The translations under genes were made by a program, and so were the position numbers. Below are positions 37,239 to 64,000 of a stretch of 64,000 nucleotides of DNA, one piece after another. Position 1 is the stretch's first letter. Each line of letters opens with the position of its first letter. The stretch is taken from contig CAZQTD010000004.1 in assembly GCA_964596355.1 (NCBI GenBank), positions 1,183 through 65,182 of the forward strand, written 5' to 3'. A model generated the notes under the pieces. That model was given only the letters and a program-made list of their open reading frames with translations. It ran no database searches and was not told the DNA's origin. The DNA is from an uncultured Gammaproteobacteria bacterium. GTDB taxonomy: Bacteria; Patescibacteriota; Microgenomatia; UBA10105; UBA927.

Positions 37239-39209
37239 CTAGAGAACAAGTTCTGTATCGGCGTCGAGCGTAAATTTCTTTTTATCTTTGCCGCCGATTT
37301 TAATCACCACGTCGTCGCCGTCGGTGCCCGGCTGCTTCTGCAGAAGCAATCGGTATTTGCCGTCTGAAGATGCAACCGGCGACGTATATGTCAAATCAAG
37401 CCTCGCAGTACCCAGCGGATTGACAATTAAAAACCCCTCAAAAACGGTTTTGCCCAGCGCCTCATAGGTAGCCATGGGAGAGGGCTTATTGTCCTTGGGC
37501 GATTGTGTCCCTTTGCTTTCAAGAAGTTTACTGCCGACAGGCACGTAGATGCGCACCCAATTGCGAAGCGGCGCATTGAGGCAAAGCCCGCCGCTTTCCA
37601 GCCCGCAGTCAGAACCGGAATACGGGTTTTTGTATTCAACGATTAGTTTAGTCGTCATGGTACCGTCGCCGGCAATAGTCGTGTCTTTGATAATTTTTTC
37701 GCTGACGAACATGTTTGATTTAGCACCTGCCATGTTGCTGTTATTGATATGAAGGTAATCCCAACCCTCCCCCTCTTTGTACTTAAGGACAGCGGCGGTG
37801 TCGCCACGCCTCATGATGCGGCCGGCCACGTTAAAGCTCTCAACGGCTTTCTGCTCTTCGGGATCATGCAGATAGGCCAGAACGTGTTTTTCGTTAATCT
37901 CGGCAATAAGCATCTGAAACAGTTTCCCCCAATACTGCGACGGTGAAACACCGAGAGCCTTCTGCAAAATTGAGTGGAGAAGAACGCCGATAATGTCTTT
38001 GCGCGCTTCCCGTACGTAGTTAACCGGCCGAGTCGAATAATCTTCAAGCTCATACACCGCGCGCGGACAATCGCACCGCTTGTCTATTTCAGCGCTAAAT
38101 TCTCTGCCGTAAACAGTCATCGGCCCCAATATTTTGAGCGCCTCTACCAGAACGTGGGTGTCCACGGCAAAAATTCCGTCGATTCGCTCGCGGCTTGACG
38201 AAGTTTCATACAATTCTTCAAATGTGGCCATTGATTCTTTAAAATCAGGAGACAGATTGCTGTCACGGATGTTGAGCGTATAGACGCCTTTATGAAACGT
38301 TTGGATTTCTCGCGGCGCCGGAAATTTTTTCTTTAGCGAAGCATCTAGCGCGTAGATATCATCGGCTTTCTCCAATATCGCTTTGCCGCGGACAAAGCGA
38401 AACTGCGCGTATGCCGTTATAAACCCTCCGGTGGGCCGAAGTTCCTTGTCGTTTTGAAATAATACAAGATACCTGCGTTCTTCAGGCTCGCCGAGCATCG
38501 CGGGCATATTCAGAAGAAGCGGTTGGGCATTCACAAAAAGGTTGGCTGCGCTGTCAATGGTTTCTTTGGCGGCTATGAGTCGTGAACGAACCGTCATGCC
38601 GCGGAAACGCTCCGGATATCTATCCGGATCTATGGCGTCTACTTCCTTTCTCAACGTGTCAATACTGCCTGCCATTGCGTTTATCTTCGGGACAAGCGCG
38701 TTCATGGTTTTTACCGCCGTCTGAATGCGGTCATCAGCGGTTCCGGCTACAAATGTACTCTCTCCTTTGAGCCCCAGAAGGTCTGCGTTCGGTTCCAGCG
38801 CTTCAATTGCCTGATCCACAGCGTTAACACCAGCATCAGCGGCGTTGAGCGCGTGTTCTCCGTCGGCAATATACGCTCCGAGGATCGGCACAAATTTAAG
38901 CGGCAACATCTTGGCATACGCCGCACGAAGTTCATCAAGACTTTTGCGTGTTTCCTTAAGACCTTCTTTGGTTTTTCCAAGATCCTGACTCTTGATTGCC
39001 GCAGACATCTGCCGCGCCATTTGTGCGACATCCTGCGCTTTAGCCACCACTCCGCGCAACGGCAGAAGCATCACAATGAGGACTATAAAAAGCACAACGA
39101 CAACGCCCAGAGGAATGAGGATATAGCTTCGAAAAACTGTTTTCTTTCCGACAAGTTTCTTTGCCGGAGAGCTTGTTTCGAGCGATATTTTTTTGAGTTC
39201 TTCGACCAT
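37239..39209 (-). CDS. DUF4012 domain membrane-anchored protein
   Basis: 656 aa. N-terminal TM, long coiled-coil-like region, then the DUF4012 core LVLFQNDKELRPTGGFITAY. Directly downstream of the phosphoglycosyl transferase. Confidence 0.75.
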   Translation of the reverse strand: MVEELKKISLETSSPAKKLVGKKTVFRSYILIPLGVVVVLFIVLIVMLLPLRGVVAKAQDVAQMARQMSAAIKSQDLGKTKEGLKETRKSLDELRAAYAKMLPLKFVPILGAYIADGEHALNAADAGVNAVDQAIEALEPNADLLGLKGESTFVAGTADDRIQTAVKTMNALVPKINAMAGSIDTLRKEVDAIDPDRYPERFRGMTVRSRLIAAKETIDSAANLFVNAQPLLLNMPAMLGEPEERRYLVLFQNDKELRPTGGFITAYAQFRFVRGKAILEKADDIYALDASLKKKFPAPREIQTFHKGVYTLNIRDSNLSPDFKESMATFEELYETSSSRERIDGIFAVDTHVLVEALKILGPMTVYGREFSAEIDKRCDCPRAVYELEDYSTRPVNYVREARKDIIGVLLHSILQKALGVSPSQYWGKLFQMLIAEINEKHVLAYLHDPEEQKAVESFNVAGRIMRRGDTAAVLKYKEGEGWDYLHINNSNMAGAKSNMFVSEKIIKDTTIAGDGTMTTKLIVEYKNPYSGSDCGLESGGLCLNAPLRNWVRIYVPVGSKLLESKGTQSPKDNKPSPMATYEALGKTVFEGFLIVNPLGTARLDLTYTSPVASSDGKYRLLLQKQPGTDGDDVVIKIGGKDKKKFTLDADTELVL

Positions 39210-39252
39210 TCTTCTATTGTTCCTAGTTTGCTAATAATTGTCAACTTCTCCT

Positions 39253-39891
39253 TTACACTGCGCCTTTTCCCGATATCATCGCCCAAGGGCTTTTAAGAAG
39301 AATCACGATGTCAAGCATGAGCGACCGTTTCTTTACATAATCTGCGTCAAGCTTGATCCTCTTGTCAAAATTTACCTCGCTTCTTCCTGATACCTGCCAG
39401 TAGCCGGTAATGCCCGGCTTTGCCGACAACACCACCTTAACCAGCTCCTTTGTGTGAGGGTACTTGCGCTGCTGCTCAACCAGTTCATCAGGATAATACG
39501 GCCGAGGGCCAACAAGACTCATGTCTCCCAGAAGAACGTTGATAAACTGCGGTATTTCGTCAAGCGAATGTTTCCGGATGAATCGTCCGACTCTCGTCAC
39601 CCGCGGGTCTTCACGCAGTTTATAGCTGTTGCGCTTATACACTCCGTACAATTTCGCAAGCTTCGGATCGCTTCTCAATTTCTCGTGTGCGCGGATAACC
39701 ATGGAACGGAATTTATAGAGCTTGAAAAGTTTTCCGTGTTGCCCAACGCGTTGCGGCGTATCAGCGAGAATCGGCCCGGGACTATCAAGTTTAATGGCAA
39801 TTGCGGTAGCCAAACAGAGAGGCAAACACAGAATTCCCAAAATAATGCTTCCCACAATATCAATAAGCCGTTTAATAATAGAATAGAGCAT
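39253..39891 (-). CDS. small monotopic phosphoglycosyl transferase (bacterial sugar transferase, PglC/WbaP C-domain type)
   Basis: 212 aa. Re-entrant N-terminal helix, then KLDSPGPILADTPQRVGQHGKLFKLYKFRSM and LVGPRP. Confidence 0.85.
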   Translation of the reverse strand: MLYSIIKRLIDIVGSIILGILCLPLCLATAIAIKLDSPGPILADTPQRVGQHGKLFKLYKFRSMVIRAHEKLRSDPKLAKLYGVYKRNSYKLREDPRVTRVGRFIRKHSLDEIPQFINVLLGDMSLVGPRPYYPDELVEQQRKYPHTKELVKVVLSAKPGITGYWQVSGRSEVNFDKRIKLDADYVKKRSLMLDIVILLKSPWAMISGKGAV

Positions 39892-39899
39892 ATAAACAA

Positions 39900-40982
39900 T
39901 TACGTCAGGTGATCGTTTTCCGTGCCGCGCAATCCTTCCACAAGGTTTTTAATCTTTGCAACAGAACTCTTTTTACACACCAACACCACGTCGCTGGTAT
40001 TGACCACCAGCATATCTTCCAAATCAATGGTTGCGACTAGTTGCGTCGTATAGTTATACACAAGGGAATCCTTCGTATCTGTCAAAAGCACTTTGCCCTG
40101 CGTGACGTTTTTGTCTTCAGCTTCTTCAAGCGCTTCTTTGAGAGCCTCCCATGCGCCGATATCGCTCCATTCGATGTTCTCGGCAATAACAAGCGCGTCA
40201 GACGGATTAAGTTTCTCCAATATCGCGTTATCAAAGTTTATTTTTTCAAGTGTGGGATAGATGTCCTGCAACAAGTCGCTGAATCGCGCAGTACGCCATG
40301 CGCGAACGATACGCGACAATCCCTGATATACGTTTGGGGCGTGCCGACTGTATTGCTGCCATAAAAAAGAAGGCGTCGTCACAAAATATCCCACGTTCCA
40401 CGCATGGTGGCCGCTTTCAAAATACCGCTTGGCAGTCGCCTGATCAGGTTTATACTGAAAATCGATGAACGCGTGAAAAGAAATAGTATTTTTTTGGAAA
40501 ACTTCCCTGCCGTACTGTATCCACCCCAGATTGACACTCGCAAATCTCGGCCGTTGCGCAACGAACACGATTTTATTCTGCTCATTGGCGACAAATGCAC
40601 CGGCGGTTTTACATATTTTACGAAACAGCGCATCTTGTTTGACCAAATGATCGCTCCAGAGGATAACCATCGGTTCATGAGGAGCTTCCTGCATGAGAAT
40701 TCCGGTCATCAACCCCACAGCAGGCCCCACGTCGCGCATCTCCGGCTCGCCGATCACGTGATCGGCAGGCAAATCGACAAGCTGCTCCTGCACGGTTGCA
40801 ACATGCGCTTTCCCAGTTGCGACGTACATGTCTTTCCACGCAAAATCAGGGCGAAGCCGCATCGCGGCAAGTTGCAATGTGGATTTGTTTCCGACGATTT
40901 TTTCAAATTGTTTGGGTGACTTTTTGCGCGAAAGGGGCCACAGCCTTGTCCCCGCTCCACCGGCAAATATGACTGCTTTCAT
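39900..40982 (-). CDS. manC: mannose-1-phosphate guanylyltransferase-like sugar nucleotidyltransferase
   Basis: 360 aa. MKAVIFAGGAGTRLWPLSRKKSPKQF matches the ManC/GMP N-terminal signature. Confidence 0.75.
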   Translation of the reverse strand: MKAVIFAGGAGTRLWPLSRKKSPKQFEKIVGNKSTLQLAAMRLRPDFAWKDMYVATGKAHVATVQEQLVDLPADHVIGEPEMRDVGPAVGLMTGILMQEAPHEPMVILWSDHLVKQDALFRKICKTAGAFVANEQNKIVFVAQRPRFASVNLGWIQYGREVFQKNTISFHAFIDFQYKPDQATAKRYFESGHHAWNVGYFVTTPSFLWQQYSRHAPNVYQGLSRIVRAWRTARFSDLLQDIYPTLEKINFDNAILEKLNPSDALVIAENIEWSDIGAWEALKEALEEAEDKNVTQGKVLLTDTKDSLVYNYTTQLVATIDLEDMLVVNTSDVVLVCKKSSVAKIKNLVEGLRGTENDHLT

Positions 40983-42085
40983 GAAAATCTTTCAATTGTA
41001 GATTTCATTTCCTTTTTAAACCGATCGAGAGAAAACCGCATCGCATTGTTTCGACAGAGTGTACTATCATACCATGTATGTTCTGCCTTCTTCAACGCAT
41101 CAATAAGCGATGACACCCGCTTTTCAGGGAATAATATTCCTGTTTTCCCATCCTGAATAATTTCGGCGATACCGCTTTCTTTATACGCAATGACTGGTAT
41201 TCCGCATGCCTGCGCCTCCGCAGCTACGAGGCCGAAATCTTCCTCACCGGCAAATACCAACGCTCGACAATTTTGATAATAGTTAACAAGCTCCTCGTCT
41301 GTCAAATGACGGAAGATAAACTGCACATTCTTTTTCGCCCGCCGCATAAGCAATCTTCGCTCCAGTCCGTCGCCGATAACGACGAGAGGCCATTGTAGCG
41401 CGTTAAACGCGTCTATCACAAGATCCACTCGCTTATACCAAACAAGACGGCTAACCAATAGATAATACGCGCCGCTTTTCTTTGACCGCGCACGCCTCGG
41501 AGGAACAAATGTTTTTACATCTGCCGGCGGATAAATGACAGCGTCAACCTCCCGATGATAGTACGATTCAATGCGCTTCTTCACACGCCTGCTTATGGCA
41601 ATATAGCGATCCGGACGCGATGCTCCAATGACGTCCCACCGCTTGAGTGTCGGCAGAAGACGCCGGTAGACAGTCCTCGATAACAACGAGGGAACACCGA
41701 TGTGCGCGCGTTCATAGGAGTTGGATTCGCTCCATAAATACCGCGTCGGGGTAAGGCAATAACATACGTGAACGGTTTCAAGCTTTGTAATGATATCCTT
41801 CGCCTCCGCGCTTGTTACAGAAAGAACAACGTCGTAGGAATCGAACGAAAAGGATTCAAACGCCATGGGAGTCAGCCATGCGTACCACTCGTGACGCGAA
41901 GCGGCAAAAGGCAGCATCTGAATAAAGGAAGGGTGAACGCGAAACACACGAGCCCACGAAGCTTTCCTCCTGTCATAGACAGCAGTATAAAGCGGCGCCT
42001 TAGGCCAAATTTCGTGAAGAGCCAAAAGCACGCGTTCAGCGCCTCCGAATTTATTGACGCGATCGTATACAAACGCAATATTCAT
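40979..42085 (-). CDS. GT4 (GT-B) glycosyltransferase
   Basis: 368 aa. N-domain FGGAERV. C-domain EEDFGLVAAEAQACGIPVIA, an E-x7-E-like region. Confidence 0.8.
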   Translation of the reverse strand: MNIAFVYDRVNKFGGAERVLLALHEIWPKAPLYTAVYDRRKASWARVFRVHPSFIQMLPFAASRHEWYAWLTPMAFESFSFDSYDVVLSVTSAEAKDIITKLETVHVCYCLTPTRYLWSESNSYERAHIGVPSLLSRTVYRRLLPTLKRWDVIGASRPDRYIAISRRVKKRIESYYHREVDAVIYPPADVKTFVPPRRARSKKSGAYYLLVSRLVWYKRVDLVIDAFNALQWPLVVIGDGLERRLLMRRAKKNVQFIFRHLTDEELVNYYQNCRALVFAGEEDFGLVAAEAQACGIPVIAYKESGIAEIIQDGKTGILFPEKRVSSLIDALKKAEHTWYDSTLCRNNAMRFSLDRFKKEMKSTIERFS

Positions 42086-43191
42086 GATCGAAACACCGTT
42101 TCATAGACAGACAGCGTATCGGCCGCCATCTTGCTCCAATTGAACCTCGATATAATCGCTTGCGCGTTCATTCGCACCGCAGCTGCCGCGGGTCGTTCCT
42201 TTTCCATCGAAATGAGAGCGTCGGCAATCGCGCGTGGGTTTCTTGCATCAACGTACGTTGCAAGCCCATTAAGATGCTCGTGAAACACAGGAATATCAGA
42301 ACAAATAACCGGACACCCCAATGCCAGCGCTTCAACAGCAGGCAGTCCGAATCCCTCCGCAAGCGATACAAAAACCAGAGCAATTGCGTTTGAATACAAG
42401 GCCCGAAGCTGCGCATCAGTTGCGTGCCCAAAAATAATTACGTCGGTCGTTACATTCATCTGCGAAATAGTATCACACAGTCGTTCATAAAAATAATCGC
42501 GCGTCCCAACAATAATGAGCTTCGCCGGTTTGACGCTTTGCATCCGGTAGATGGCATAGGCTTTAAGAAGCGTATTGAGATTTTTATGCGGATACGCGTT
42601 GCCCACATAGAGAAAATAGCGTGAAGGCAATCCTGGAATCCGCCGCGGGGTTCCCACAAGCGAAGGATCAACCCCCTCCCGCGTGATCCAAATTGCGCCG
42701 GGATCAACACCAAACTCGCGGACAATATCATCTTTAACTGTTTGCGAAACAGTGAGAAGAGCGGAAGCGTGACGAATCCCATGACGCAACACGACTTCGT
42801 ACCCGAAGCGTTTGATCGCGTATAGAAACGGGTGCCGCGTGGTAGCCAATCCTGTGTTGAAGTGTCGTATCGTCAGATCGTGTATCGTCAAAATATATGA
42901 ACCTCCATAAAGAACCGGCGCGTTAAAGTAAGGTACGTGCAATACATCAAGCTTTTCGCGTCTATAGAACCACGGCATGATAAGCTGTTCAAGCGCCGTG
43001 TGCCATCGAACCGGGGCCTTTCGTTTTTCCCAACGGCTGTTAGGAACCTGAAAGGCATCAAACGCATCGGTATAAAGGAACACGACATACCGATTCTTCC
43101 TGTCTATACGAGAAAGCTCTCGGATAAGGTTTCGGATGTAGCGCCCAACGCCGCTTTGCGAAATGAGCCGTGCATCAATGCCAATTTTCAT
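42082..43191 (-). CDS. GT4 (GT-B) glycosyltransferase
   Basis: N-domain IGIDARLISQSGVGRYIRNL. C-domain EGFGLPAVEALALGCPVI. Start at MKIGIDA; the longer ORF would overlap the next gene by 73 nt. Confidence 0.8.
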   Translation of the reverse strand: MKIGIDARLISQSGVGRYIRNLIRELSRIDRKNRYVVFLYTDAFDAFQVPNSRWEKRKAPVRWHTALEQLIMPWFYRREKLDVLHVPYFNAPVLYGGSYILTIHDLTIRHFNTGLATTRHPFLYAIKRFGYEVVLRHGIRHASALLTVSQTVKDDIVREFGVDPGAIWITREGVDPSLVGTPRRIPGLPSRYFLYVGNAYPHKNLNTLLKAYAIYRMQSVKPAKLIIVGTRDYFYERLCDTISQMNVTTDVIIFGHATDAQLRALYSNAIALVFVSLAEGFGLPAVEALALGCPVICSDIPVFHEHLNGLATYVDARNPRAIADALISMEKERPAAAAVRMNAQAIISRFNWSKMAADTLSVYETVFRS

Positions 43192-43196
43192 GACCG

Positions 43197-44096
43197 TTAG
43201 AGCGACAACGTGGTCACAAGCGCAATCCGTAGCCGCAAAAGCAACAATACCATAATCCTTACAATCCAAGGGTAGGCATTGCGATAATGTTTTTCATAAA
43301 AAAGGATCATTGCCTGATAAAAATGCTTCGTCGTCTGCTTTCGAATCTTCGCATCACGACTTTCTCTGCCGCTTTGTTTTTTGTAATGGACAACCGATGC
43401 GTAAGGGTTAAACCAAACTTCCCACCCGTGCGCCTTTATTCGATACGCCCAGTCGAGATCTTCTCCGTACATAAAATACGCCTCATCTAGAAGTCCCACA
43501 TCGCGCACTGCCTCTTTTCTAACCATAAAAAACGCACCGCTTGGGCAGTCTATTGTATGCGGCACTGTCATATCTTTATATCCTTGGTGATATTGCCCGA
43601 ACAATTGTGATTGTGGGAACAATCGCTCAAGTCCCAGAAAGTACGTCAGCGCCGCCCAAGGCGTAGGAAATCCTCTGTGACACGCAAGGTCCATCCGACC
43701 GCTGGCCAAAGTTACAGCGCACGTGGCGATCCCTGCGCGCTTGTGTTCATCCATAAACGCCACCATATCGCCGATGGTGCGGGCATGAACCTTGGTATCC
43801 GAATTAAGAAGGAGAATGTAGCGACCCGTTGCCTTCTTTATCGCAAGATTGTTGCCGGCCGCAAACCCGCTGTTTCTTTCATTGACGATCAGGCGAATGC
43901 CTTCAACAAGCTTTAACGCTTCAACACTTCCGTCGGTAGATCCGTTATCCACGACAAACACTTCCCATCTACCGCCTTGCCGTTGCGCGTTCCGAAGCGA
44001 AGAAAGACAGCGCAACACGAGCTCCTTTGTATTGTGATTGAGAATAATAATGGAAACGTCAACCGTGCGTTTCATGCGCGCGCCTCCAGACGTCAT
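43197..44096 (-). CDS. GT2 (GT-A) glycosyltransferase
   Basis: 299 aa. VSIIILNHNTKELVLRCLSSL and FVVDNGSTDGS with a DxD-like region. Confidence 0.8.
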   Translation of the reverse strand: MTSGGARMKRTVDVSIIILNHNTKELVLRCLSSLRNAQRQGGRWEVFVVDNGSTDGSVEALKLVEGIRLIVNERNSGFAAGNNLAIKKATGRYILLLNSDTKVHARTIGDMVAFMDEHKRAGIATCAVTLASGRMDLACHRGFPTPWAALTYFLGLERLFPQSQLFGQYHQGYKDMTVPHTIDCPSGAFFMVRKEAVRDVGLLDEAYFMYGEDLDWAYRIKAHGWEVWFNPYASVVHYKKQSGRESRDAKIRKQTTKHFYQAMILFYEKHYRNAYPWIVRIMVLLLLRLRIALVTTLSL

Positions 44097-45249
44097 CGAG
44101 TGTTTTTGCGATCAAATCCCAAGCGAATTCTTTCTCTATTTTCTTTCTGGCTTTTTTTACAAGAACGCTAACCCATCGGGGATGTTCCAAAAGCTGTGCA
44201 CTTTGTCGTACAAAATCCGCAGAATCCTTGGCAATGAGAATTTCCTCGCCATGCTGCACATTAAGTCCCATCGCGCCAATCTTTGTGGTGACGACGGGAA
44301 TGCCGCACGCCATCGCCTCCAGTATCTTATATTTCGTTCCTCCGCCGATCCGTATCGGAGCAAGAAGAACATCGCTTGAATGGAACACGCTGGCGATATC
44401 ATCAACGTCAGTACTAAGTTTAATGTTCTTGCTGCCGGCAATCTCCCGCAGGTACTTCGGCGGCCGCTTTCCAACAATCAGAAGGTTCGCGTTTGGATAC
44501 GCGGAAATAAGAAGAGGCCAAATGTCGCGCACTATATAGCCAACGGCGTCGCGATTCTGCATCCACGCAAAATTTCCGACAAACAGAAACGTCGGCGCCT
44601 TGCCGACTTTTTTGGGTCGAAAATTAAAGTGCCGCACGTTTACCCCGTTTGGAACAACAGATACGTTGCTTCTGCCAACAACATTGTCAATACAACGCTT
44701 GTCATCGTCAGAGACTGCCGTGATGTGGGTTGCCCGCCGCCAAACGAACTGCTCCCACTGCTTCAATTTGCGAACATCCTGCACAAGGATCGGACGAAGC
44801 GGCGTGAAGGGAAAATGATTCGCGTACTGCTCATACACGGCGTGTTCTATATTGTGTTCCCCAACAACGAAAGGCGTCTGAATTGTGGGCAAAGACGGCC
44901 ACACATACCCCGGCTCGATATGAATAACATCGTACGATGTGGAGGCGATCGCCCGAGCGATCCGTTCGCGCATGCGCGCGATGTCATACGTAGCGAAAAC
45001 AAACGGGTATGGCCCGCTCATTGATCTAATAATATACTGCAGTTGCCACGCGCGCCCTCTATAGACGGTTGCAACATCGTGGCAAAATGCCAGCTGGGAC
45101 AAATATCCGAGCTCCTCTTGGTGCCGAATGAACGTATAAAGATCAATCGTATGCTTCCGGCTAAGTATTTGTAGCAGATTATATACACGAATCTGACCGC
45201 CCGAATATAGCGGATACGGCAGCACCGCCGAGACAAAAAGAATCTTCAT
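44059..45249 (-). CDS. GT4 (GT-B) glycosyltransferase
   Basis: 396 aa. MKILFVSAVLPYPLYSGGQIRVYNLL is a GT4 N-terminus. GGTKYKILEAMACGIPVV in the C-domain. Confidence 0.8.
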   Translation of the reverse strand: MKILFVSAVLPYPLYSGGQIRVYNLLQILSRKHTIDLYTFIRHQEELGYLSQLAFCHDVATVYRGRAWQLQYIIRSMSGPYPFVFATYDIARMRERIARAIASTSYDVIHIEPGYVWPSLPTIQTPFVVGEHNIEHAVYEQYANHFPFTPLRPILVQDVRKLKQWEQFVWRRATHITAVSDDDKRCIDNVVGRSNVSVVPNGVNVRHFNFRPKKVGKAPTFLFVGNFAWMQNRDAVGYIVRDIWPLLISAYPNANLLIVGKRPPKYLREIAGSKNIKLSTDVDDIASVFHSSDVLLAPIRIGGGTKYKILEAMACGIPVVTTKIGAMGLNVQHGEEILIAKDSADFVRQSAQLLEHPRWVSVLVKKARKKIEKEFAWDLIAKTLDDVWRRAHETHG

Positions 45250-46691
45250 TGCTTTTTTGTAAGATCAATGATGACGAACGTGTCGTTTTTCATAAGAACC
45301 GTGTACGTATCCATAAGCGTCATGATTTCACCATCTTTGTCTGCCGGGGCAACAGAGATATAATGAGTTGCGCCCATTCGTATTTTCTCATCGATGTCAA
45401 AACCAATCGGCCAACCCTGACGCCGCGTCTGATAAAGAAACGTCGTATCTCCGCCGTATGGAGCAATCACTTTCGCGTCTTCCGGCAACAGCGTGTCTGC
45501 GGCACGTCCGGCTTCGACAATTTCTGGCTTATTTATCCAATAATAAGTCCGCACCGTGTACCATGAAAACGTGATCATGAATGCAAAACTGATGGTCGCG
45601 GTGCCAATACAAACAAGCCGATTCCCTTTCTGCGAGTTTTTCAGAAGTGCTGCTATCCCCACACCGACAAATGAACTCACCATCGGAATGAGAAGTACTT
45701 GATAATAATCATGCTGCACGTTGCCGGACGCAAATATTATAAGGTAGGCAAGTGCGCCCGCCAGCCATAGATACAACAACGCCCTGTTTGACATGCCGGG
45801 CTTTGACACCAAACCAAACCCAAACAGGATTAATCCCCAATATCCTAAAATTAGCTCGCCGAGCCGTTTGGCAAACAACCAATAAAACCACGCGCCCTTA
45901 AACCTGATGCCGTTTCCGTTGAAAAGCCACTCATAGGCGGGAATTCCTTCAGGAAACTGCAGAATCCACCGGCGCCACCAATAAAGAGCCGATACGCAAA
46001 TCAACGAGTAAACAGCCAACAAAATACACGAACTGCGCGAAAGGCCCAATCTGCGCAAGATTAAATACGGCGCGGGCAACAGAAGAAACGCGGCAGTCGG
46101 TTTGACAAGAAGCGCAACCGCGCCGCACGCTGCGGCTACAAAAAACACGACCGTTGACGTTACGCCACGGCGGTCAAACGCAAGTAGTACGAGGCTTAAG
46201 AGCGCCCAAAATACCATGAACGTATCCGGCAATATAGCCCTGCCGTAAAAAACGCTGTACGGCAGTACCGCCATCGTGACAGCCGCCCAAACACCAACCC
46301 ACGGATCAACGACCGCGAAAAGCAGGAGTCCCAAAAGAAATACGCTTGCCGATGAAGCGAAATTATTGACAAGCCGAAGCCACACCTCAATCGGCAGCAA
46401 TCCGATGTGTCGAGCAAGAAATGCTGCAAAGACTTGATACAGCGGAAATTCCACCATGCGCCAGCCCATTGGATTGTCTTTGCCCGACTGGATATTAGAA
46501 AGATCATCGTACCGGGGTCGCAGCGGGTCAATGCCGAACTTCAGATAATTTCTGGCAACCGCCGCCGTATCCGATTGTCGCCAGCTGTGCCAATCGGCAA
46601 GGGGCGCAGTTAATCGGTACAGTCGCAAACCAAACGCCACAAGCGCGACGCTTGCGAGTATCACAATATGAATGGTGCGGTGTTTTTTCAT
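45246..46691 (-). CDS. GT-C fold polyprenyl-phosphate-sugar-dependent glycosyltransferase, ArnT/PMT (family 39/83-like)
   Basis: 481 aa, about 11 TM. First periplasmic loop HSWRQSDTAAVARNY and C-terminal soluble domain, an architecture typical of ArnT/PMT_2 proteins. Confidence 0.55.
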   Translation of the reverse strand: MKKHRTIHIVILASVALVAFGLRLYRLTAPLADWHSWRQSDTAAVARNYLKFGIDPLRPRYDDLSNIQSGKDNPMGWRMVEFPLYQVFAAFLARHIGLLPIEVWLRLVNNFASSASVFLLGLLLFAVVDPWVGVWAAVTMAVLPYSVFYGRAILPDTFMVFWALLSLVLLAFDRRGVTSTVVFFVAAACGAVALLVKPTAAFLLLPAPYLILRRLGLSRSSCILLAVYSLICVSALYWWRRWILQFPEGIPAYEWLFNGNGIRFKGAWFYWLFAKRLGELILGYWGLILFGFGLVSKPGMSNRALLYLWLAGALAYLIIFASGNVQHDYYQVLLIPMVSSFVGVGIAALLKNSQKGNRLVCIGTATISFAFMITFSWYTVRTYYWINKPEIVEAGRAADTLLPEDAKVIAPYGGDTTFLYQTRRQGWPIGFDIDEKIRMGATHYISVAPADKDGEIMTLMDTYTVLMKNDTFVIIDLTKKQ

Positions 46692-50537: not shown

Positions 50538-50541
50538 GGGG

Positions 50542-51150: not shown

Positions 51151-51187
51151 TGGTTAGGTGGTTGAAGGGTCAGATGGTTAAAACCAT

Positions 51188-55059: not shown

Positions 55060-55068
55060 TCTATCAAA

Positions 55069-56937: not shown

Positions 56938-56938
56938 A

Positions 56939-58780
56939 TTATGTTCTTCGACATTTCAAACCCATAAGTGTACCGATCACAGCAAGCAGCGATGCCGCGC
57001 TGATATAAACGCCAATGGTCGCCCACTTGTCCTGTCTGACAGCTATCGCAGGAGTTTCTTCTTTCATGGTCCATTGAGTATTTTTGAAAACCGCAACATC
57101 TCCATAGCGATGATCTTCGATGAGCTTTGTTTTCCTCAATGCAAGTATCAATGAGTCGCGCTCCTTTGGATTAAAACGATAATCTGTAAGGAACATCCGC
57201 TTCTCCACATCTGTTGGCACGATTACATACCCGATGCCCGAATCGTCAAGCGTTTTCATAAAATCAGGTTTTTGCGTCTTTTCAATGATTGCCGATATCG
57301 ACGCGTTGTCAAACAACTGGTTAGACGTAAGCAAAGGGTGCGTTCCGGACCAAAAGGCAAATGCGTCTTCTCGGGGAATCCACAGCGTGCGGGACGGCTT
57401 GAGATCCGAAACAAGCATATCTTTCAAACGGACATACTCATCGGTAAGACGAAGCGGCCGAACGTTTCCCGCCACCTGACCTGTAAAAAGAGCGCGGAGA
57501 GTAAACAGCCAAAACACGAAAAAACCGGCATAAAGGAGTGCGTAAACCGCATTGCGTATGTTTTTGTGCCTGACGCGTGATGCGCGATACGCGACGCATA
57601 TCCGTTGACCTGCCTGATGAAGCGTGAACGGAATAAGCACCGAGTAACCAATTGCTGTGAATGCGTAGAACTTCGTCGGGTCGCGAAACAGGATAAATCC
57701 CGGGATGTGTTCAAACATGAACTGGAATATGCCGCCGAACGGTTCTTGTACTCCTTTGGCTAAAAACGCGCCCACAAGCGAAAGGAGGGCGAAATAAAGA
57801 ACGTGTTTTTTTTCAACTTGAAATATATTTTGTATATTTGCTATTTGACGTTTCCTGTAAGAAACAGCAAGAAGTGAACTATACGCGAGTATGGGCAACA
57901 TGAGGAATTCCGGCTGGAGAAAATACACTTTCCCGAACAGGTTTTCCGGCCAATTCGGGTGAAGCAGACTCAAGGAATGGGAAAAATCCGCAACGCTTAA
58001 AAACGTAAGCATGCCGGGGTTGGTAAATTCTTCTCCCAAAGATGACGCTCCTGCCCGCGTGAGGATCGCCGGCAGTATCCAAAACATGTGGATCGACAAT
58101 GCGACGAAAAGCGGGATTCCAAAGGTTGAAAGCATTATGTATAACGTATTGCGCATGTTCTCGTGACCAATACCTGCCTGACCCAAGTTGCGCCGAAGGA
58201 ATCCGTGGTACGCAACACTCACCATGCTATACAACAATAGTGCGCCCAGTATAAGATATGCGAATCGGAGGTCAAAAGCGATGAATAATGACAATAATAA
58301 ACCATTCTGCAGCGCATACCTGATACCTGATGCCTGATTCCAACTGCCAGTGTCAGCATCGCCGTGCCCGTCGACTAAATGAATAAACCGCCGCAAGACA
58401 AGCGGGGTCACGCTATATGCAAGTGCAACGCCGATTTGTCCTCCGGCAAATAAAAGCAGAATGTATGTATTTGTCGTATAGATCACTGAAGCAACAACTG
58501 CGGCAGCTTTACGTTTCAATACATGCCATCCAAGCGTGTAGGACGAACAGAACGATAGTATAAAAACAGACGCCCACAAAAGTTTGTCGATTGTCCACCA
58601 CGAACATCCCACGGATGAGAGCGCTTTTACGACCAACTCATACGGATAATCAAACCATAGGCGAATAAGGGAAGAAGTGCCAAATCCGTACTCCGAATGC
58701 CACACACGAGGCATCCACGAAAGCCCCGCGAGTTGTTCGGCAAAATAAAATCCTGCGTCACCGCTTGCAAAATACCACAT
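56939..58780 (-). CDS. polytopic membrane protein, paralog of the 960-aa protein (YfhO/AftD-like GT-C candidate)
   Basis: 613 aa. Shares FEHIPGFILFRDPTKFYAF (compare RHMPGFAIFRSSFYKFAP in the 59826-62708 product) and a C-terminal soluble domain plus terminal TM. Confidence 0.5.
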   Translation of the reverse strand: MWYFASGDAGFYFAEQLAGLSWMPRVWHSEYGFGTSSLIRLWFDYPYELVVKALSSVGCSWWTIDKLLWASVFILSFCSSYTLGWHVLKRKAAAVVASVIYTTNTYILLLFAGGQIGVALAYSVTPLVLRRFIHLVDGHGDADTGSWNQASGIRYALQNGLLLSLFIAFDLRFAYLILGALLLYSMVSVAYHGFLRRNLGQAGIGHENMRNTLYIMLSTFGIPLFVALSIHMFWILPAILTRAGASSLGEEFTNPGMLTFLSVADFSHSLSLLHPNWPENLFGKVYFLQPEFLMLPILAYSSLLAVSYRKRQIANIQNIFQVEKKHVLYFALLSLVGAFLAKGVQEPFGGIFQFMFEHIPGFILFRDPTKFYAFTAIGYSVLIPFTLHQAGQRICVAYRASRVRHKNIRNAVYALLYAGFFVFWLFTLRALFTGQVAGNVRPLRLTDEYVRLKDMLVSDLKPSRTLWIPREDAFAFWSGTHPLLTSNQLFDNASISAIIEKTQKPDFMKTLDDSGIGYVIVPTDVEKRMFLTDYRFNPKERDSLILALRKTKLIEDHRYGDVAVFKNTQWTMKEETPAIAVRQDKWATIGVYISAASLLAVIGTLMGLKCRRT

Positions 58781-58784
58781 ATTG

Positions 58785-59744
58785 TCACGTCACCTTGGGA
58801 TAGACAAGCTTCTCGTTTCGGATGATGAAGGAAATTCCGGCGAAATTACCCTTAAGATACGCAAGCATCCAGTGCGCTTTTTGCAGGATAGAAACATTCC
58901 CCCGATACCATATCGCCTTATACCAATAAAACAGCATAAATACCCAAATCCAGATGAGAACAATCCCGAGCAATTGGATCTTTGTTGAATACAACGAATG
59001 AAAGATGATTCTGTTTCTTGCAAATACGTACGGCAGTCTGGCATCGTTCATAAAATGATCCATATAATCACCGGTGTCATGGTAGATAATCGCGTCTCTC
59101 ACTACCTTAACCGTATACCCTGCCTTTCTAATCCGATAAGCTAGGTCACTTTCTTCATACATGATGCCGAATTTTTCGCAAAACGATATCCCATGCGTCT
59201 TTATAACGCTTGCTCGCACCATGAAGGCGTTTGGCACATCCGGAGTTTCCCAATACTCATCATTCGCATACATTTGAAGATTATTCGGCAAATATGTCTT
59301 TGTCGTCCACATGTTTCTGATAGTCTGGATCCAAAATACCGTTTTCCTATCACGGAAACTTTTGTTGACGAGTCCTAATTCCCCTATTCCATCATCGCTC
59401 TCAAAGATACGAACCAAGTGCGCAATCGCATGGGCATCCAACACATTATCATCATCAACATAAAAAAGATATGCTCCTCTCGCTACTCTCGTACCAACGT
59501 TTCTGGCACCGGCTGCAAACAGATTTCTTTTATTTCTCACCACGCGCAACCGTCGGTAGCTGGCAAACGTCTTTTTAATCGCTTGATACGTGTTATCTGT
59601 CGACGCATCGTCAACGACAATTACTTCAATATGCTTGTATGTACTTTTCATAATGCTCTTTAGCAAACGTATCACCATTGTTTTGCGGTTATGTGTTGGA
59701 ATAATTATAGAAACCAGCGGTAATGTGGTATTGTCAGTTTTCAT
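58785..59744 (-). CDS. GT2 glycosyltransferase with C-terminal membrane anchor (polyprenyl-phosphate sugar synthase, GtrB/CsbB-like candidate)
   Basis: 319 aa. LPLVSIIIPTHNRKTMV and VIVVDDASTDNT. C-terminal hydrophobic LGIVLIWIWVFMLFYWYKAIW. Confidence 0.75.
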   Translation of the reverse strand: MKTDNTTLPLVSIIIPTHNRKTMVIRLLKSIMKSTYKHIEVIVVDDASTDNTYQAIKKTFASYRRLRVVRNKRNLFAAGARNVGTRVARGAYLFYVDDDNVLDAHAIAHLVRIFESDDGIGELGLVNKSFRDRKTVFWIQTIRNMWTTKTYLPNNLQMYANDEYWETPDVPNAFMVRASVIKTHGISFCEKFGIMYEESDLAYRIRKAGYTVKVVRDAIIYHDTGDYMDHFMNDARLPYVFARNRIIFHSLYSTKIQLLGIVLIWIWVFMLFYWYKAIWYRGNVSILQKAHWMLAYLKGNFAGISFIIRNEKLVYPKVT

Positions 59745-59825
59745 GACGCTTTATCGTGGTTTTGTATCCTCATATCCATTATCTACTCTCTCAATCGTCA
59801 GCATGCGTACGGTTGTAACATAGCG

Positions 59826-62708
59826 TTACCCGGTGACCCTCTTTCGCACACTCCCTGTATACCACACGGCAGCGACGATGAGGCTCGTTATTGATAACAT
59901 ATTGCCATATGTGCCATTTGTCTGCGTCGTATACCGTATCTCAAAGGCACCGCGGGTATTGCGTGGCACAAGCCAGCCGTTCGCAAACCCATTCGCTTCA
60001 TAATGATCAGTAATAATATGACGCTTCCCATTTGTCGATGTAAACGACAATTGCCAGCGAGGATCATACCGCTGATTAAGCACAATCGCCGATGGATCAG
60101 AAATCGAACGCACGATATTTCCCTCATACCGAGTGGGGGAAATCCTTACAAAGGATAACGGCACCATTCCACCTTCTGGTGCGTATTCATTTCTAAGAAA
60201 TATGTAGGGAGCCACCATTTGTCCATTGCGCGCAAGCTCAATCGTGTGAAACCCTTCTTCAAGCGTCACAATATGCAATGGTGCCAACACACCATCGACA
60301 ATAATTCGATCAAGCGGATTAGATCCAATAATCCGATAACGATCCGATTGAGGAATGGTAACGATATACCGAAACGATGAATCGTCCGACATATAGATAT
60401 TCTTCATCACCTCATTCTTCAAGGGACGAATAATCGACGAAACATCGTGGAATATAACAGTTCCTGCTGTTAATCGTTCGATAGCCGCTATATACGCGTA
60501 TAATCGATTCGCATAGATAACCTGCATCCGTCCAGACAGTTTGCGGTAGAGTTCATTCATCTGTTCTAAAACGACTGACATGTTGCTCATCTGCTCCTTA
60601 TTGCCCGAATGAACTGCCAACGATATGATGGACACGACATTCGATAATTTCTCATCGATCAGCTCGCCATACGATTGTTCATGCTTCTTCATACGAGCAA
60701 AACGCCTGCCAAGATGTTTGACGAATGTCTTGCGTTGATCATCGACCGGCGGTAAATAGATGCTTGAAACTAATGTATTAAATTCATCCGGATTGCACAT
60801 CATGCATTCAGCGCCTATCGCTGTGGGCAGTCGAGCATCTGCTGGCGACTCGACTCTAATTGTTGCTGTGTCGCTCGCACATATGACATCTCCCCTCGCC
60901 GATCCGGTCACCTGTATGGGATTGCGGACAATCGAAATCATCGGCCGTATCGAAGCAGTATTACGGTATAGTTTCCACGGACCCGACTGGGAAACAAGAC
61001 TCATTCCTTCCATGGATGCAAGGGTTTGTTCATACTCGACAAGGGAATGACGTTTTCCCATAGCTTCGGACAATGCGACATCACCCCGCCAGAGTACGTG
61101 TGTGACGCCAGCCAATGACGCAAGCTCATGGAACCCTTCCATATCACGATCATACAAATGCTGATAAAGAAGTGCTGTTATGGCATCGTCATTGGCGTCT
61201 CCGGCGAGAAATGACCGATTCGTCATAATTCTCGGCAATATATCCGCACTATAAAACCCCCATGTGTAGGCATCCATAGGCAAGGTAATAAATCCGGGAT
61301 CAAGGTCCGGGAACACCAAGATCCTGTCATCCATCGTTGTCTTTTTCTCTATTGCGTGTTTCATCTGATTAACATACCGAGGAATTGCTACACGCGTTCG
61401 AAATAAACCGCTTATAGTAAAGCTCTCCGATGAAAAAAACGGGTAATGGTATGCCAAAATGCCACTGATGCACATGCTCCAGACGATCGTTCTTATGTAT
61501 TTCTTCTTAACATACGTATGGATAAACAGCGCCATAAAGTAGCCGAAAAGCACCGTAACAGAAAACCAAACGGTTGGAGCGAATTTATAAAAACTGGACC
61601 GAAATATCGCAAATCCAGGCATGTGGCGCATGAGCAGAAGGTATATGACTCCTGTCGGTGGATGAGATCCCGCGGTAAAAAAAATCCCAACAGCAAGTAG
61701 CGCAGTAAGAAATAGGAGTATGAAGCGACGCGACGAGTCTATTCCAAACCGTATAACCCCCAACGCACTGACACCAGCAGGTATAAGGCTTGCCAGAACA
61801 AGAACAATGTTTGACTCATAGACGCCAGCGTAAGGATGCGATGGATTTCCATGCCAATCAGGAAACCCCTGCAGCCGTATGATATTCAGAAATGATGCAT
61901 TGCGGCTAAAAGCTTTTTCCCATTCGATAAGTCCGCCTATTCCTCCCTGCGCAGCTACAGATGATCCAAACGATGCGTGTGCATACGCAATAAGCGGTAC
62001 AATCCAATAGGCATTAAAAAGAAGAAATGACACAGCAAACAACGCATATGAACCAAGAAGCCGAACTGTTCCTGCCAGTCCCCGTTGGCGGAATACGAAG
62101 GCAGAAAACATGATTACGGCAAGTCCAATGGCTATAATCGTTGCGCCATACAGGGGGATGGATCCACCACCGTTCCATACTGCATAAAGAAGTCCAAACG
62201 CTATCGCTGTCCTCACCGGTTGTGCGGCATGAAACGCCTGCCGATACATAAGGAGAATTGCGATCGGAAGCGCGGCATAGAGCGAAAATTTTGCGCGCTC
62301 GGCATTGAGCCATCCGTTGAGAATAAAAAAATTATACATATAATATATCGAGGAAAAAATTCTAAAAAACCGAAAATGAGATTCAGGAAACATATTCCGA
62401 AGAAATATATACATTGACAGGCCTATCAGCATAAACCATCCAACAAACACCGTCGTTTGCGCCACAGGAAGTGAACCGGTAACCTGCGACACGATGGCCT
62501 CCGGAAGCTGTAGGACTGCAAACGCACGGTAGATGGTCCAGTCAATGCCGTAATTGACCGTAGGGTTCCAGCTATGAAGAAGGCTTGTGATGTGCGCTAT
62601 GCCATTTAAGCGGAATCCGGAATCATACCCGACAATCGAATACCCGCCGATGAGCCACACGATCGGAACAAGGGAGAGAAAAAACAGAAATATGATGTCT
62701 ATTATCAT
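59826..62708 (-). CDS. giant polytopic membrane protein with about 500-aa extracytoplasmic domain and C-terminal anchor (YfhO/AftD-like GT-C candidate)
   Basis: 960 aa. About 13 N-terminal TM, motif MPGFAIFRSSFYKF, a large soluble domain ending HYEANGFANGWLVP, and a terminal TM (MLSITSLIVAAVWY). Confidence 0.55.
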   Translation of the reverse strand: MIIDIIFLFFLSLVPIVWLIGGYSIVGYDSGFRLNGIAHITSLLHSWNPTVNYGIDWTIYRAFAVLQLPEAIVSQVTGSLPVAQTTVFVGWFMLIGLSMYIFLRNMFPESHFRFFRIFSSIYYMYNFFILNGWLNAERAKFSLYAALPIAILLMYRQAFHAAQPVRTAIAFGLLYAVWNGGGSIPLYGATIIAIGLAVIMFSAFVFRQRGLAGTVRLLGSYALFAVSFLLFNAYWIVPLIAYAHASFGSSVAAQGGIGGLIEWEKAFSRNASFLNIIRLQGFPDWHGNPSHPYAGVYESNIVLVLASLIPAGVSALGVIRFGIDSSRRFILLFLTALLAVGIFFTAGSHPPTGVIYLLLMRHMPGFAIFRSSFYKFAPTVWFSVTVLFGYFMALFIHTYVKKKYIRTIVWSMCISGILAYHYPFFSSESFTISGLFRTRVAIPRYVNQMKHAIEKKTTMDDRILVFPDLDPGFITLPMDAYTWGFYSADILPRIMTNRSFLAGDANDDAITALLYQHLYDRDMEGFHELASLAGVTHVLWRGDVALSEAMGKRHSLVEYEQTLASMEGMSLVSQSGPWKLYRNTASIRPMISIVRNPIQVTGSARGDVICASDTATIRVESPADARLPTAIGAECMMCNPDEFNTLVSSIYLPPVDDQRKTFVKHLGRRFARMKKHEQSYGELIDEKLSNVVSIISLAVHSGNKEQMSNMSVVLEQMNELYRKLSGRMQVIYANRLYAYIAAIERLTAGTVIFHDVSSIIRPLKNEVMKNIYMSDDSSFRYIVTIPQSDRYRIIGSNPLDRIIVDGVLAPLHIVTLEEGFHTIELARNGQMVAPYIFLRNEYAPEGGMVPLSFVRISPTRYEGNIVRSISDPSAIVLNQRYDPRWQLSFTSTNGKRHIITDHYEANGFANGWLVPRNTRGAFEIRYTTQTNGTYGNMLSITSLIVAAVWYTGSVRKRVTG

Positions 62709-63043
62709 TTAGGAAACCTCTGTGCGCGCCAAACTTCCCTGCCGTACTGTACAAGACCAAAAACGAAAAAAAGATAAAACCATTCTGCGAAGCGTTCAGT
62801 CGTCCGCGATGGTCCTGTGGGTATATATGATAACCCTGTATAGAGAAGAAATAACAGAGAAAGGATAAAAGATGTTCTACTTGAAGATAATTGAATAAGA
62901 GTAACAATGCCATATAAAAAAAATGCAATAAAAAAGGGTAAATCTGAATACCTAAATACCTCGGCTAAATCGGCAAATACCACAATGGCTATTAGAAAAA
63001 GCGTGAATAAAGAAAGGAGGATGAGTGGTTTACTTTTCTTCAT
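62705..63043 (-). CDS. small 3-4 TM membrane protein (candidate GtrA-like lipid-linked sugar flippase, unverified)
   Basis: 112 aa with four hydrophobic segments. Overlaps both flanking genes by a few nt, consistent with translational coupling. Confidence 0.4.
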   Translation of the reverse strand: MKKSKPLILLSLFTLFLIAIVVFADLAEVFRYSDLPFFIAFFLYGIVTLIQLSSSRTSFILSLLFLLYTGLSYIPTGPSRTTERFAEWFYLFFVFGLVQYGREVWRAQRFPK

Positions 63044-64000
63044 GGCGTTTGTTTGTTACAATGCGCACACCGCGTACGACAACAAATAAAAATACGGCGC
63101 CAGAAATTACTATTCCAATATACAGATAGTTTTGGCTTTTCAAATATATAGTTCCATGCACTACGTCTGCTTGAATTCCCTCGGGATCAATAATCCATCC
63201 ATTCGCGTATCCGTTTACCAAAATGTGGTTTATGGTTACTCCTTGCCATGCCGGCTCAAGAGAAAAATCCCATGTTGAATGAAAATCATTTGACAGAATG
63301 AGAAGAAATGGCGTCTTTCTTCCTCTCATATCGATATCCACCTCAAAGCGTACCGGAGATCTTTTTCTATATGATAGAGATGGACTTTCTGAATCGTTTC
63401 CGTCGCAAGTCAAATAGTCACATGCAGCATCGTCAACGTAGGCAGATCGGTAAGAATCTTTCAGTGCTTCTTGCTGATCAGAATATATGCTGTCGGGAAT
63501 GTATATATGTGGACGAACCACAGCATCTTCAAATTCATATATCTCGTAAAATCCTTGTGCATATATCTTCTTCACCGGCAGTAAAGCCAAAAACTTCTCA
63601 TAAGAATTCTGATCTTTAATAATTGGAAGCTGTTCCTTAGACGAATAGGTCATGCCCGGATATACGTACGGATAACCAGGAAAATCATCTATAATGCGCG
63701 AATCTGAATTGCGGAATATATACCGAACGTTAAGAAGCGAAAGAAGCTGGACAAAACGATCGATATCCTCTCTGCGAAGGACATCGAATATAAGCCGTTC
63801 ATACGGACCGAATGTCCAAAAACCGGTAAAATCAGGTTTTCCGGCCACTAAAGAAACCGTCGATATGCCAACAAACGCACCTCCCTGCTTACCATATGCT
63901 ATTTGAAAATATGGAAACGTAAGCGGCAAGGTAAGTACTTTTCCGTCCTGAGGCAGATTTTTGAGGTACGATAAAGACGTGATGAGATCAGGATCTATCT
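63030..64000 (-). CDS. C-terminal part of a further large membrane glycosyl-transfer-like protein (5' end outside window)
   Basis: The frame stays open to the window edge; the apparent start at 63929 is a TTG. The C-terminus ILVNGYANGWIIDP plus terminal TM is homologous to the C-terminus of the 960-aa protein. Confidence 0.5.
   Translation of the reverse strand, partial: IDPDLITSLSYLKNLPQDGKVLTLPLTFPYFQIAYGKQGGAFVGISTVSLVAGKPDFTGFWTFGPYERLIFDVLRREDIDRFVQLLSLLNVRYIFRNSDSRIIDDFPGYPYVYPGMTYSSKEQLPIIKDQNSYEKFLALLPVKKIYAQGFYEIYEFEDAVVRPHIYIPDSIYSDQQEALKDSYRSAYVDDAACDYLTCDGNDSESPSLSYRKRSPVRFEVDIDMRGRKTPFLLILSNDFHSTWDFSLEPAWQGVTINHILVNGYANGWIIDPEGIQADVVHGTIYLKSQNYLYIGIVISGAVFLFVVVRGVRIVTNKRHEEK

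Follow-up and report, generated by a model that had tools for sequence, protein, structure and literature searches.

The described system that appears closest in function to the locus reported here is the assembly of arabinogalactan and lipoarabinomannan (LAM) in mycobacteria, where AftA-D, EmbA-C, PimE and mannosyltransferases are membrane glycosyltransferases of the GT-C type that use decaprenyl-phosphate sugars and, as in other GT-C enzymes, carry a catalytic Asp or Glu shortly after a membrane helix. The locus occupies positions 37239-64000 of a 64,000-nucleotide stretch of DNA (hereafter the window; contig CAZQTD010000004.1 of assembly GCA_964596355.1, positions 1,183 to 65,182) from a Microgenomates-type bacterium of the Patescibacteria with a small genome. 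A substantial part of the diversity of bacteria is accounted for by the Patescibacteria, or Candidate Phyla Radiation (CPR), whose members, most of them not in culture, live on other cells to which they attach and have a cell surface of largely uncharacterised composition. We propose, with a probability of roughly 70%, that the locus encodes a lineage-wide envelope glycan pathway of Microgenomates-type bacteria, which would start on a polyprenyl-phosphate carrier and be finished outside the membrane. DUF4012, the family of the last gene of the locus, is enriched in CPR and Gram-positive bacteria, and the same survey listed 35 families enriched in Microgenomates, mostly hypothetical and including 14 of membrane proteins (Méheust et al. 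2019, PMC6744442); a description of the locus is absent from that paper. Searches of the literature on DUF4012 and on glycosyltransferases of Patescibacteria/Microgenomates likewise returned no description of it, in line with the suggestion of an initial annotation, made from the letters of the window, that the system is undescribed.

The locus is 27 kb long and consists of 22 genes, which are consecutive, as first annotated, all lie on the minus strand (as do all locus coordinates given below) and are packed in an operon-like manner, with an intergenic spacing of -73 to +81 bp and 4-bp overlaps at eight junctions. Transcription runs from high to low coordinates in the order g21, g20, g19, g18, g17, g16, g15, an open reading frame (ORF) of 79 aa, g14, g13 and so on down to g1. 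Encoded are a DUF4012 protein, a PglC-type initiating transferase, a GDP-mannose pyrophosphorylase, GalE, a UDP-xylose synthase (UXS), a hexapeptide acetyltransferase, four GT4 glycosyltransferases and a GT4 N-terminal domain, three GT2 glycosyltransferases, two small membrane proteins (g20 and the product of the 79-aa ORF) and six large polytopic proteins (g8, 481 aa; g9, 1003 aa; g16, 622 aa; g17, 613 aa; g19, 960 aa; g21, more than 322 aa). Each enzyme could be placed in a family or fold, and the inventory supports the view that the glycoconjugate pathway looks complete and that mannose, galactose and xylose donors are provided for by g3, g14 and g15.

Conservation was assessed in 42 related loci with full 10-kb flanks, each from a different GTDB species, and in a wider set made up of the best 80 g9-bearing loci among GTDB species-representative genomes, at least 588 of which contain the g9 family. 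These 80 loci are labelled Gottesman-, Levy-, Woese- or Shapirobacteria, or Patescibacteria, and almost all are Microgenomates-type. The core order g13-g12-g11-g10-g9-g8-g7-g6-g5-g4-g3-g2-g1 was retained with all 13 genes in 30 of the 42 loci and with at least 12 genes in 39, a collinearity which shows that the array is not a product of chance; in the wider set, g8 directly follows g9 in 76 of the 80 loci. The three highest median identities were those of g2 (70%, present in 41/42 loci), g3 (66%) and g1 (63%, present in 39/42). Gene g1 is the last of the array, with recO starting 6 bp downstream, and the core block likewise terminates at recO in a Microgenomates contig of 1.02 Mb. The content upstream of g13 varies: UXS and GalE genes are frequent there, and the presence of further GT-C genes and of genes for sugar modification differs from locus to locus. 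AftD-like genes, described below, are present in 25 of the 42, the long form being often followed by a small membrane ORF, and the adjacency of an AftD-like gene, a small membrane protein and a GT2 recurs in many genomes. The locus is thus composed of a conserved core and a variable arm. The GC content of the core is 0.45-0.51 (0.47-0.51 for every core gene except g10), equal to that of the remaining window (about 0.48-0.51), and that of the distal arm is 0.418 for g18, 0.462 for g19, 0.369 for g20 and 0.408 for g21. With its lower GC content and its variability between genomes, g18-g21 looks like an exchangeable decoration module. The word island, under which the locus had first been annotated, is therefore wrong for the core, which 39 of the 42 loci keep collinear beside recO, variability being confined to g18-g21 in the distal arm; horizontal acquisition as an island was rejected on the grounds of the conserved core order and of a core GC content that matches the rest of the window. 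Since the core order is kept in most of the related genomes sampled, we read the locus as serving a central envelope function rather than as an accessory capsule.

The six large membrane proteins are the most unusual part of the locus. Their transmembrane segments were estimated by a crude hydropathy count, which gave 7-17 hydrophobic segments in the five proteins that are complete within the window. Direct scans of the six against Pfam and NCBIfam returned only IctB (E 1.5e-5), MmpA (about 3e-9) and Dpy19 (0.015), and PDB searches by sequence and profile with g8, g19 and the family profiles gave no relevant relative. The homologues of g8 (45246..46691; nine hydrophobic segments) were more informative. 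A full HMMER scan of 1.84 billion representatives recovered 1822 relatives; among 40 full-length homologues, PMT_2 (PF13231) was matched by 38, with a best E of 4.5e-19, and PMT (PF02366) by 21, and the syntenic g8 orthologue in one related locus (L002) carries PMT_2 as well. By transitivity, g8, itself without a Pfam match, may be placed in the PMT_2 family as a GT-C protein of the ArnT-PMT type, and its D33, directly after the first transmembrane segment, is shared by at least 90% of the aligned family members.

Immediately upstream, g9 (46688..49699) has over 1500 homologues, which share about 50% identity with it, and is laid out as a Wzy_C-like part (residues ~1-500) followed by a PMT_2-like GT-C part (~520-1003). 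Wzy_C (PF04932) was matched at E ≤ 0.01 by 26 of 37 g9 homologues, around residues 223-435 in the two close homologues examined, with scores of 27.6, 30.3 and 34.4 bits for homologues against a gathering score of 31.7; g9 itself has no PF04932 match and matches IctB weakly (E 1.5e-5). In its C-terminal half, from about residue 544 to about residue 970, g9 can be aligned with the g8 family (hhalign probability 90.9%, 387 columns), and D544 and D545 are invariant across the g9 family. Judged from these sequence comparisons, g9 is a fusion of a Wzy_C-like domain with a PMT_2-like GT-C domain, and g8 is probably a paralogue of the second of these. This bears on the idea that six GT-C enzymes stand in place of a Wzy polymerase or ligase: the six GT-C proteins are indeed there, but the first half of g9 is itself a module of the Wzy/ligase type. 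A protein of 1035 aa from another organism (P0369) begins with a Wzy_C-type half resembling that of g9, to which a g8-type domain is directly joined, and this fusion in another lineage argues that the two kinds of domain may act together. A further protein of about 1035-1045 aa (P0378) has a C-terminal g8-type PMT domain in what the hit table alone indicates to be the layout of P0369, and two proteins of about 800 aa (P0370, P0374) have a C-terminal g8-type PMT domain behind other N-terminal extensions. In the searchable literature, we found no description of a Wzy_C domain fused to a PMT_2-like GT-C domain of ~480 aa.

Three of the remaining large proteins, g17 (56939..58780), g19 (59826..62708) and g21 (63030..64000), resemble the arabinofuranosyltransferase AftD. 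GT-C_AftD (PF11847, DUF3367) was found at E ≤ 0.01 in 9 of 36 g19 homologues (best E 1.8e-8) and DUF5667 in 11 of 36. The predicted structure of g19, the long form, has the AftD architecture, in that it combines a membrane domain with alpha and beta-sandwich domains in its soluble part and ends in an anchor helix at residues 928-959, and the best structural match of the AftD-like proteins is a polysaccharide-building arabinofuranosyltransferase, at about 13% sequence identity to AftD. By sequence, neither g19 nor g17 nor g21 matches PF11847 even at E ≤ 10, and the g19 family profile does not retrieve AftD from the PDB; because this sequence match is absent, we call the three proteins AftD-like rather than members of the AftD family. 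The short form g17, which has, besides its membrane domain and a single soluble domain, a hydrophobic anchor at the C-terminus (residues 589-607), can be aligned with residues 1 to ~590 of the g19 family (hhalign 97%, 498 columns; BLASTP against g19, 1.5e-7), its 'DAGF' lying on the invariant 'DSGF' of that family so that the equivalent Asp is retained. Gene g21 runs off the window end; its C-terminal 322 aa, which comprise the soluble C-terminal part and a C-terminal anchor, match the C-terminus of the g19 family with an hhalign probability of 98.4%, and a 525-aa copy on a Logan contig (L003) covers family columns 235-609, that is, the membrane and first soluble domains, at 99.4%. The g21 homologue in the closest relative is 758 aa long. 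Taken together, these comparisons identify g17 and g21 as paralogues of g19 and, by homology, as GT-C proteins. We also observed that g17 matches the NCBIfam model of MmpA, a corynebacterial membrane protein needed for the surface transport of trehalose lipids, at E 3.1e-9 and 36 bits, far under the 210-bit cut-off; MmpA may be distantly related to the AftD-like GT-C module.

The sixth large protein, g16 (55069..56937), belongs to a family in which none of 120 listed homologues has a Pfam domain. Its AlphaFold2 model, built from 56 sequences, reached a pLDDT of 90 and a pTM of 0.92 with a GT-C fold, and D136 is invariant in the family. A relationship to the AftD-like proteins was considered and rejected, as hhalign against the g19 family gave a probability of only 12%. 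On the strength of the model, g16 may represent a previously unannotated GT-C family. Profile, homologue and structural evidence therefore agrees with the first annotation of these proteins and supports a GT-C-type assignment for all six, which for g8 and the C-terminal half of g9 would run via PMT_2. The assignment is in keeping with the acidic residues g8 D33, g9 D544/D545, g16 D136 and g19 D29 (invariant in its family), each of which follows a membrane helix at a short distance and may correspond to the catalytic residue of a GT-C enzyme. That these proteins act as transporters or have unrelated housekeeping roles, an outcome already contemplated in the initial annotation, is highly improbable: the lack of a direct Pfam match for any of the six and the weak match of g17 to MmpA (36 bits against a cut-off of 210) could be taken in favour of it, whereas the structural and profile evidence assigns every one of them to GT-C families.

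The soluble enzymes had been correctly named from the letters, and their identities rest on Pfam, NCBIfam and UXS1 matches. Gene g2 (39253..39891, 212 aa) encodes a polyprenyl-phosphate phosphoglycosyltransferase (PF02397, 205.6 bits); since TIGR03025 (257 bits) and other models of the WbaP/WcaJ type are covered only in their C-terminal catalytic part, it is of the small PglC type. Gene g3 (39900..40982, 360 aa) encodes a mannose-1-phosphate guanylyltransferase with an NTP_transferase domain and the ManC beta-helix, and matches TIGR01479 with 237.7 bits over model positions 2-350 of 467, i.e. over the GMP domain only, without the PMI domain. Gene g14 (52875..53861, 328 aa) is the UDP-glucose 4-epimerase GalE (TIGR01179, 399.6 bits; cut-off 262), and g15 (54094..55059, 321 aa) is a UDP-glucuronate decarboxylase, or UDP-xylose synthase, which hits structures of human UXS1 with 342.7 bits (E 1.9e-101), far ahead of the 152.7 bits of the next family. 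The hexapeptide-repeat O-acetyltransferase is encoded by g11 (50542..51150, 202 aa; Hexapep, 45 bits), which matches the WcaF family with 81 bits, under the model cut-off. The GT4 enzymes are g4 (40979..42085, 368 aa; Glycos_transf_1, 100 bits), g5 (42082..43269, 395 aa, from an uncertain TTG start; Glycos_transf_1, 98 bits, and Glyco_transf_4), g7 (44059..45249, 396 aa; Glyco_trans_1_4, 94.9 bits; TIGR03087 at 192.8 bits, under the model cut-off) and the full-length g12 (51188..52339, 383 aa; Glycos_transf_1, 99 bits, and Glyco_transf_4). The GT2 enzymes are g6 (43197..44096, 299 aa; Glycos_transf_2, 94.8 bits), which has a hydrophobic C-terminus and whose NCBIfam matches are only generic EpsD-like ones, g10 (49671..50537, 288 aa; 93.3 bits) and g18 (58785..59744, 319 aa; 110 bits), which has one C-terminal hydrophobic helix. 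Finally, g1 (37239..39209, 656 aa) is the DUF4012 protein (PF13196, 84 bits), with a single predicted N-terminal transmembrane segment (residues 30-48) and no relative in a PDB sequence search.

One gene first taken for a GT4 fragment turned out differently. Gene g13 (52336..52908, 190 aa; Glyco_transf_4, 52.9 bits) encodes a stand-alone GT4 N-terminal domain; all 42 related loci have it as a gene of its own (49% identity), and it is called at 182-184 aa in other genomes, for which reason its interpretation as a pseudogene remnant of a GT4 was rejected. Its product is probably a partner domain of the neighbouring GT4, and its position just upstream of full-length g12, together with its conservation as a separate gene, suggests a two-subunit glycosyltransferase.

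Of the small membrane proteins, the one of 79 aa (53858..54097), known from its ORF and translation, overlaps each neighbouring gene by 4 bp, and in other genomes ORFs of 72-94 aa resembling it separate the UXS gene from the GalE gene. The other, g20 (62705..63043, 112 aa), has two hydrophobic segments by hydropathy count and about four in the family alignment, and shares a C-terminal motif (TERFAEW...) with ORFs of 107-139 aa beside AftD-like genes in 16 other loci, a family link that was drawn from a multiple alignment and gene position and not from a scored comparison. Neither g20 nor these 16 positional counterparts matched PF04138 (GtrA) or any other meaningful Pfam family at E ≤ 0.1, and g20 was accordingly rejected as a GtrA homologue. 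The relatives of g18, in turn, are generic GT2 proteins (chondroitin synthase, EpsD family), with GtrB (5ekp) reached at E 1e-3 only.

In the pathway that we propose, g2 would load a sugar-1-phosphate onto the lipid carrier at the cytoplasmic face, and the chain would be extended by the GT4 enzymes g4, g5, g7 and g12, the last with its partner domain g13, and by the GT2 enzymes g6, g10 and g18, drawing on GDP-mannose (from g3), UDP-galactose or UDP-glucose (g14) and UDP-xylose (g15), while g11 would O-acetylate the product. The intermediate would then cross the membrane through a flippase, which might be encoded elsewhere in the genome or be found in the g20 family, the 79-aa protein or DUF4012. 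At the outer face, the Wzy_C-like half of g9 would polymerise the lipid-linked unit or ligate it to an acceptor, and the second half of g9, together with g8, g16, g17, g19 and g21, would elongate or branch the glycan from lipid-phosphate-linked sugars, the distal arm g18-g21 probably providing strain-specific decoration. The order of these steps, the donors of the GT-C enzymes, the role of g9 as polymerase or ligase and the acceptor are what we infer from the gene complement.

Exporters were looked for at several levels. Pfam and NCBIfam scans of the 22 genes revealed no family of the MOP/Wzx, MurJ or ABC type, as expected from the initial annotation, and the upstream genes of the window that were scanned include no flippase. 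A crude motif scan found no combination of Walker A and ABC signature in the long ORFs of the window or in 269 unassigned ORFs of the 80 loci, in agreement with the Pfam scans. Unassigned ORFs of the 80 loci with at least six transmembrane segments contained no Wzx either, as judged from the 10 of 16 group representatives that were scanned, of which two matched PMT_2, one YfhO and one EamA (three loci), and six were left without assignment. The closest relative has two additional GT2 genes, a methyltransferase gene and amino-deoxy sugar genes, and no exporter, within the 10 kb that precede its g21 homologue. No Wzz or GNVR match that would indicate a chain-length regulator was obtained for the locus or the upstream genes.

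These scans bear directly on whether this is an ordinary Wzx/Wzy-dependent capsule or exopolysaccharide (EPS) locus, with the flippase elsewhere in the genome and the GT-C proteins as accessories. The initiating transferase, the GT2 and GT4 enzymes, the acetyltransferase, the sugar-nucleotide genes and the Wzy_C-like domain are all standard parts of such loci, and DUF4012 occurs in a capsule/EPS cluster of Bifidobacterium, as related in PMC6744442 with reference to PMC5412050. Yet neither a Wzx nor a chain-length regulator nor a tyrosine kinase was found in the window, the 80 loci or the 10 kb upstream in the closest relative; g8 and g9 belong to the invariant core and are not accessories; and, whereas capsule loci are normally variable, the core is collinear across genomes labelled Gottesman-, Levy-, Woese- and Shapirobacteria. 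We consider this explanation quite unlikely.

A second alternative is protein O-glycosylation, in which the Wzy_C-like domain of g9 would act as an oligosaccharyltransferase of the PglL/TfpO type on pilins or S-layer proteins and the PMT_2-type enzymes would glycosylate proteins directly. PglL and TfpO, both O-oligosaccharyltransferases, do belong to the Wzy_C family, enzymes of the PMT type O-mannosylate proteins, and the homologues of g8 match PMT as well as PMT_2. Moreover, type IV pili are abundant in CPR bacteria, whose envelope resembles that of Gram-positive bacteria (PMC6744442). However, the locus encodes no candidate acceptor protein, three of its enzymes are AftD-like, with large soluble domains that contain beta-sandwiches and a polysaccharide-type arabinofuranosyltransferase as best structural match, and seven cytoplasmic glycosyltransferases (plus g13) with six GT-C enzymes suggest a large polymer over a short glycan. 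We regard protein O-glycosylation as unlikely, though not negligible.

The proposal of an envelope glycan pathway completed outside the membrane has to be held against several observations that count against it. A flippase is absent from all scans made, and no attachment enzyme of the LCP or sortase type was seen in the window. None of the GT2 genes of the locus is specifically like GtrB, ArnC or DPM1 in sequence searches, which leaves the source of donors for the six GT-C enzymes unexplained. None of the six large membrane proteins matches Pfam even at E ≤ 10, and the Wzy_C assignment of g9 is a weak one, the homologue scores being mostly near or below gathering and a PDB sequence match being absent. 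Lastly, the genes as such do not establish the identity of the glycan, its acceptor or its donors. Teichoic-acid or S-layer glycosylation, which the initial annotation had also raised, is neither favoured nor contradicted by the observations. Keeping these points in mind, we regard the initial observation as confirmed and judge the interpretation given in the initial annotation to be partly supported overall.

The genomic setting of the locus is consistent with a role in the envelope. The upstream 37 kb of the window hold a division and cell-wall cluster and housekeeping genes; mraZ, Mur-ligase-domain genes, mraY, murG, ftsW, rodA, a FemAB-family gene and recO were identified by scanning, and ftsZ, ftsA, ftsQ, ftsI and rsmH by reading of the translations. 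An envelope housekeeping role fits because the locus adjoins recO and this cluster. The division cluster is interrupted at 19336-22201 and 24377-25690 (minus strand) by genes for a FemAB-family protein, a protein of the metallo-beta-lactamase fold, a DegT-type sugar aminotransferase and, further along, a GlmU-like nucleotidyltransferase/hexapeptide protein; these genes may point to some modification of the peptidoglycan or to an additional pathway for amino sugars. Outside the locus, a predicted polytopic DUF2079 protein (PF09852, 146 bits) is encoded at 7720-9177 on the minus strand, between ileS and ftsZ. We take DUF2079 to group with GT-C-like families, in which case it would be the seventh such protein in the window, and one of the related loci has a similar ORF of 480 aa (L040_3) in its variable arm. 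The DUF2079 gene is separated from ftsZ by ~920 bp (9178-10097) of lower GC content (0.438 in the 8-10 kb bin), with a single same-strand ORF of 69 aa (9489-9698, minus strand) and a few other ORFs of 51-73 aa; no Rfam family or tRNA was found in this interval. As regards the sources of the related loci, four of them (L005, L007-L009) and many other locus-bearing GTDB records are titled 'uncultured Gammaproteobacteria bacterium' (TPA), and one is titled 'Candidatus Sulfotelmatobacter sp.', which looks like mislabelling or mis-binning.

A more far-reaching version of the pathway can be put forward only tentatively, namely that its product is a heteroglycan of mannose, galactose and xylose, anchored to the wall or membrane, that defines Microgenomates-type lineages as the CPR counterpart of arabinogalactan/LAM, and that it would be built largely at the outer face of the membrane through the g9 fusion, the g16 family and the AftD-like enzymes, with a new kind of flippase (g20-type, the 79-aa protein or DUF4012). 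The locus makes up ~2.7% of a genome of roughly 1 Mb, a size estimated from related contigs and one chromosome record (0.95-1.32 Mb). It offers a defined set of genes for a CPR surface glycan, an unannotated GT-C family in g16 and an unusual fusion in g9, and it raises the concrete question of which protein flips the lipid-linked intermediates.

Compared with Wzx/Wzy loci, the present one shares a PglC/WbaP-type initiator, GT2 and GT4 enzymes, an O-acetyltransferase, sugar-nucleotide genes and a Wzy_C-like domain. In the scans made, it differs from them in missing two defining features, the Wzx flippase and the chain-length regulator; it further differs in its six GT-C proteins, two of them in the invariant core, and in a gene order that is conserved over several Microgenomates candidate phyla, with no serotype-like variability of the whole locus. 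The variable arm, where the membrane-anchored GT2 g18 and the small membrane protein g20 stand together with the GT-C proteins g17, g19 and g21, is reminiscent of the three-component systems for glycosylation outside the cytoplasm made up of GtrB, GtrA and a GT-C enzyme (GtrC, ArnT or YfhO), but g18 is no nearer to GtrB than to other GT2 proteins and the g20 family has no match to GtrA, and the likeness is one of layout only. Like members of the Wzy_C family (WaaL, PglL, TuaE, IctB), the first half of g9 has homologues that match PF04932, with marginal scores, and g9 itself matches IctB weakly; unlike them, it appears to be joined to a PMT_2-like GT-C domain of ~480 aa. Compared with arabinogalactan/LAM assembly, the locus is without an ABC exporter, an LCP ligase and recognisable genes of a decaprenyl-phospho-arabinose pathway, its sugar-nucleotide genes point to mannose, galactose and xylose, its putative Wzy_C-like domain is fused to a GT-C domain, and its host is a Patescibacterium with no mycolate envelope. 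In common with that system, it would, as read from the genes, provide for a cytoplasmic lipid-linked primer that several GT-C enzymes elaborate outside the membrane, and it places a small membrane protein beside GT-C genes, a placement that may parallel that of the small GtrA-like Rv3789 in the mycobacterial cluster.

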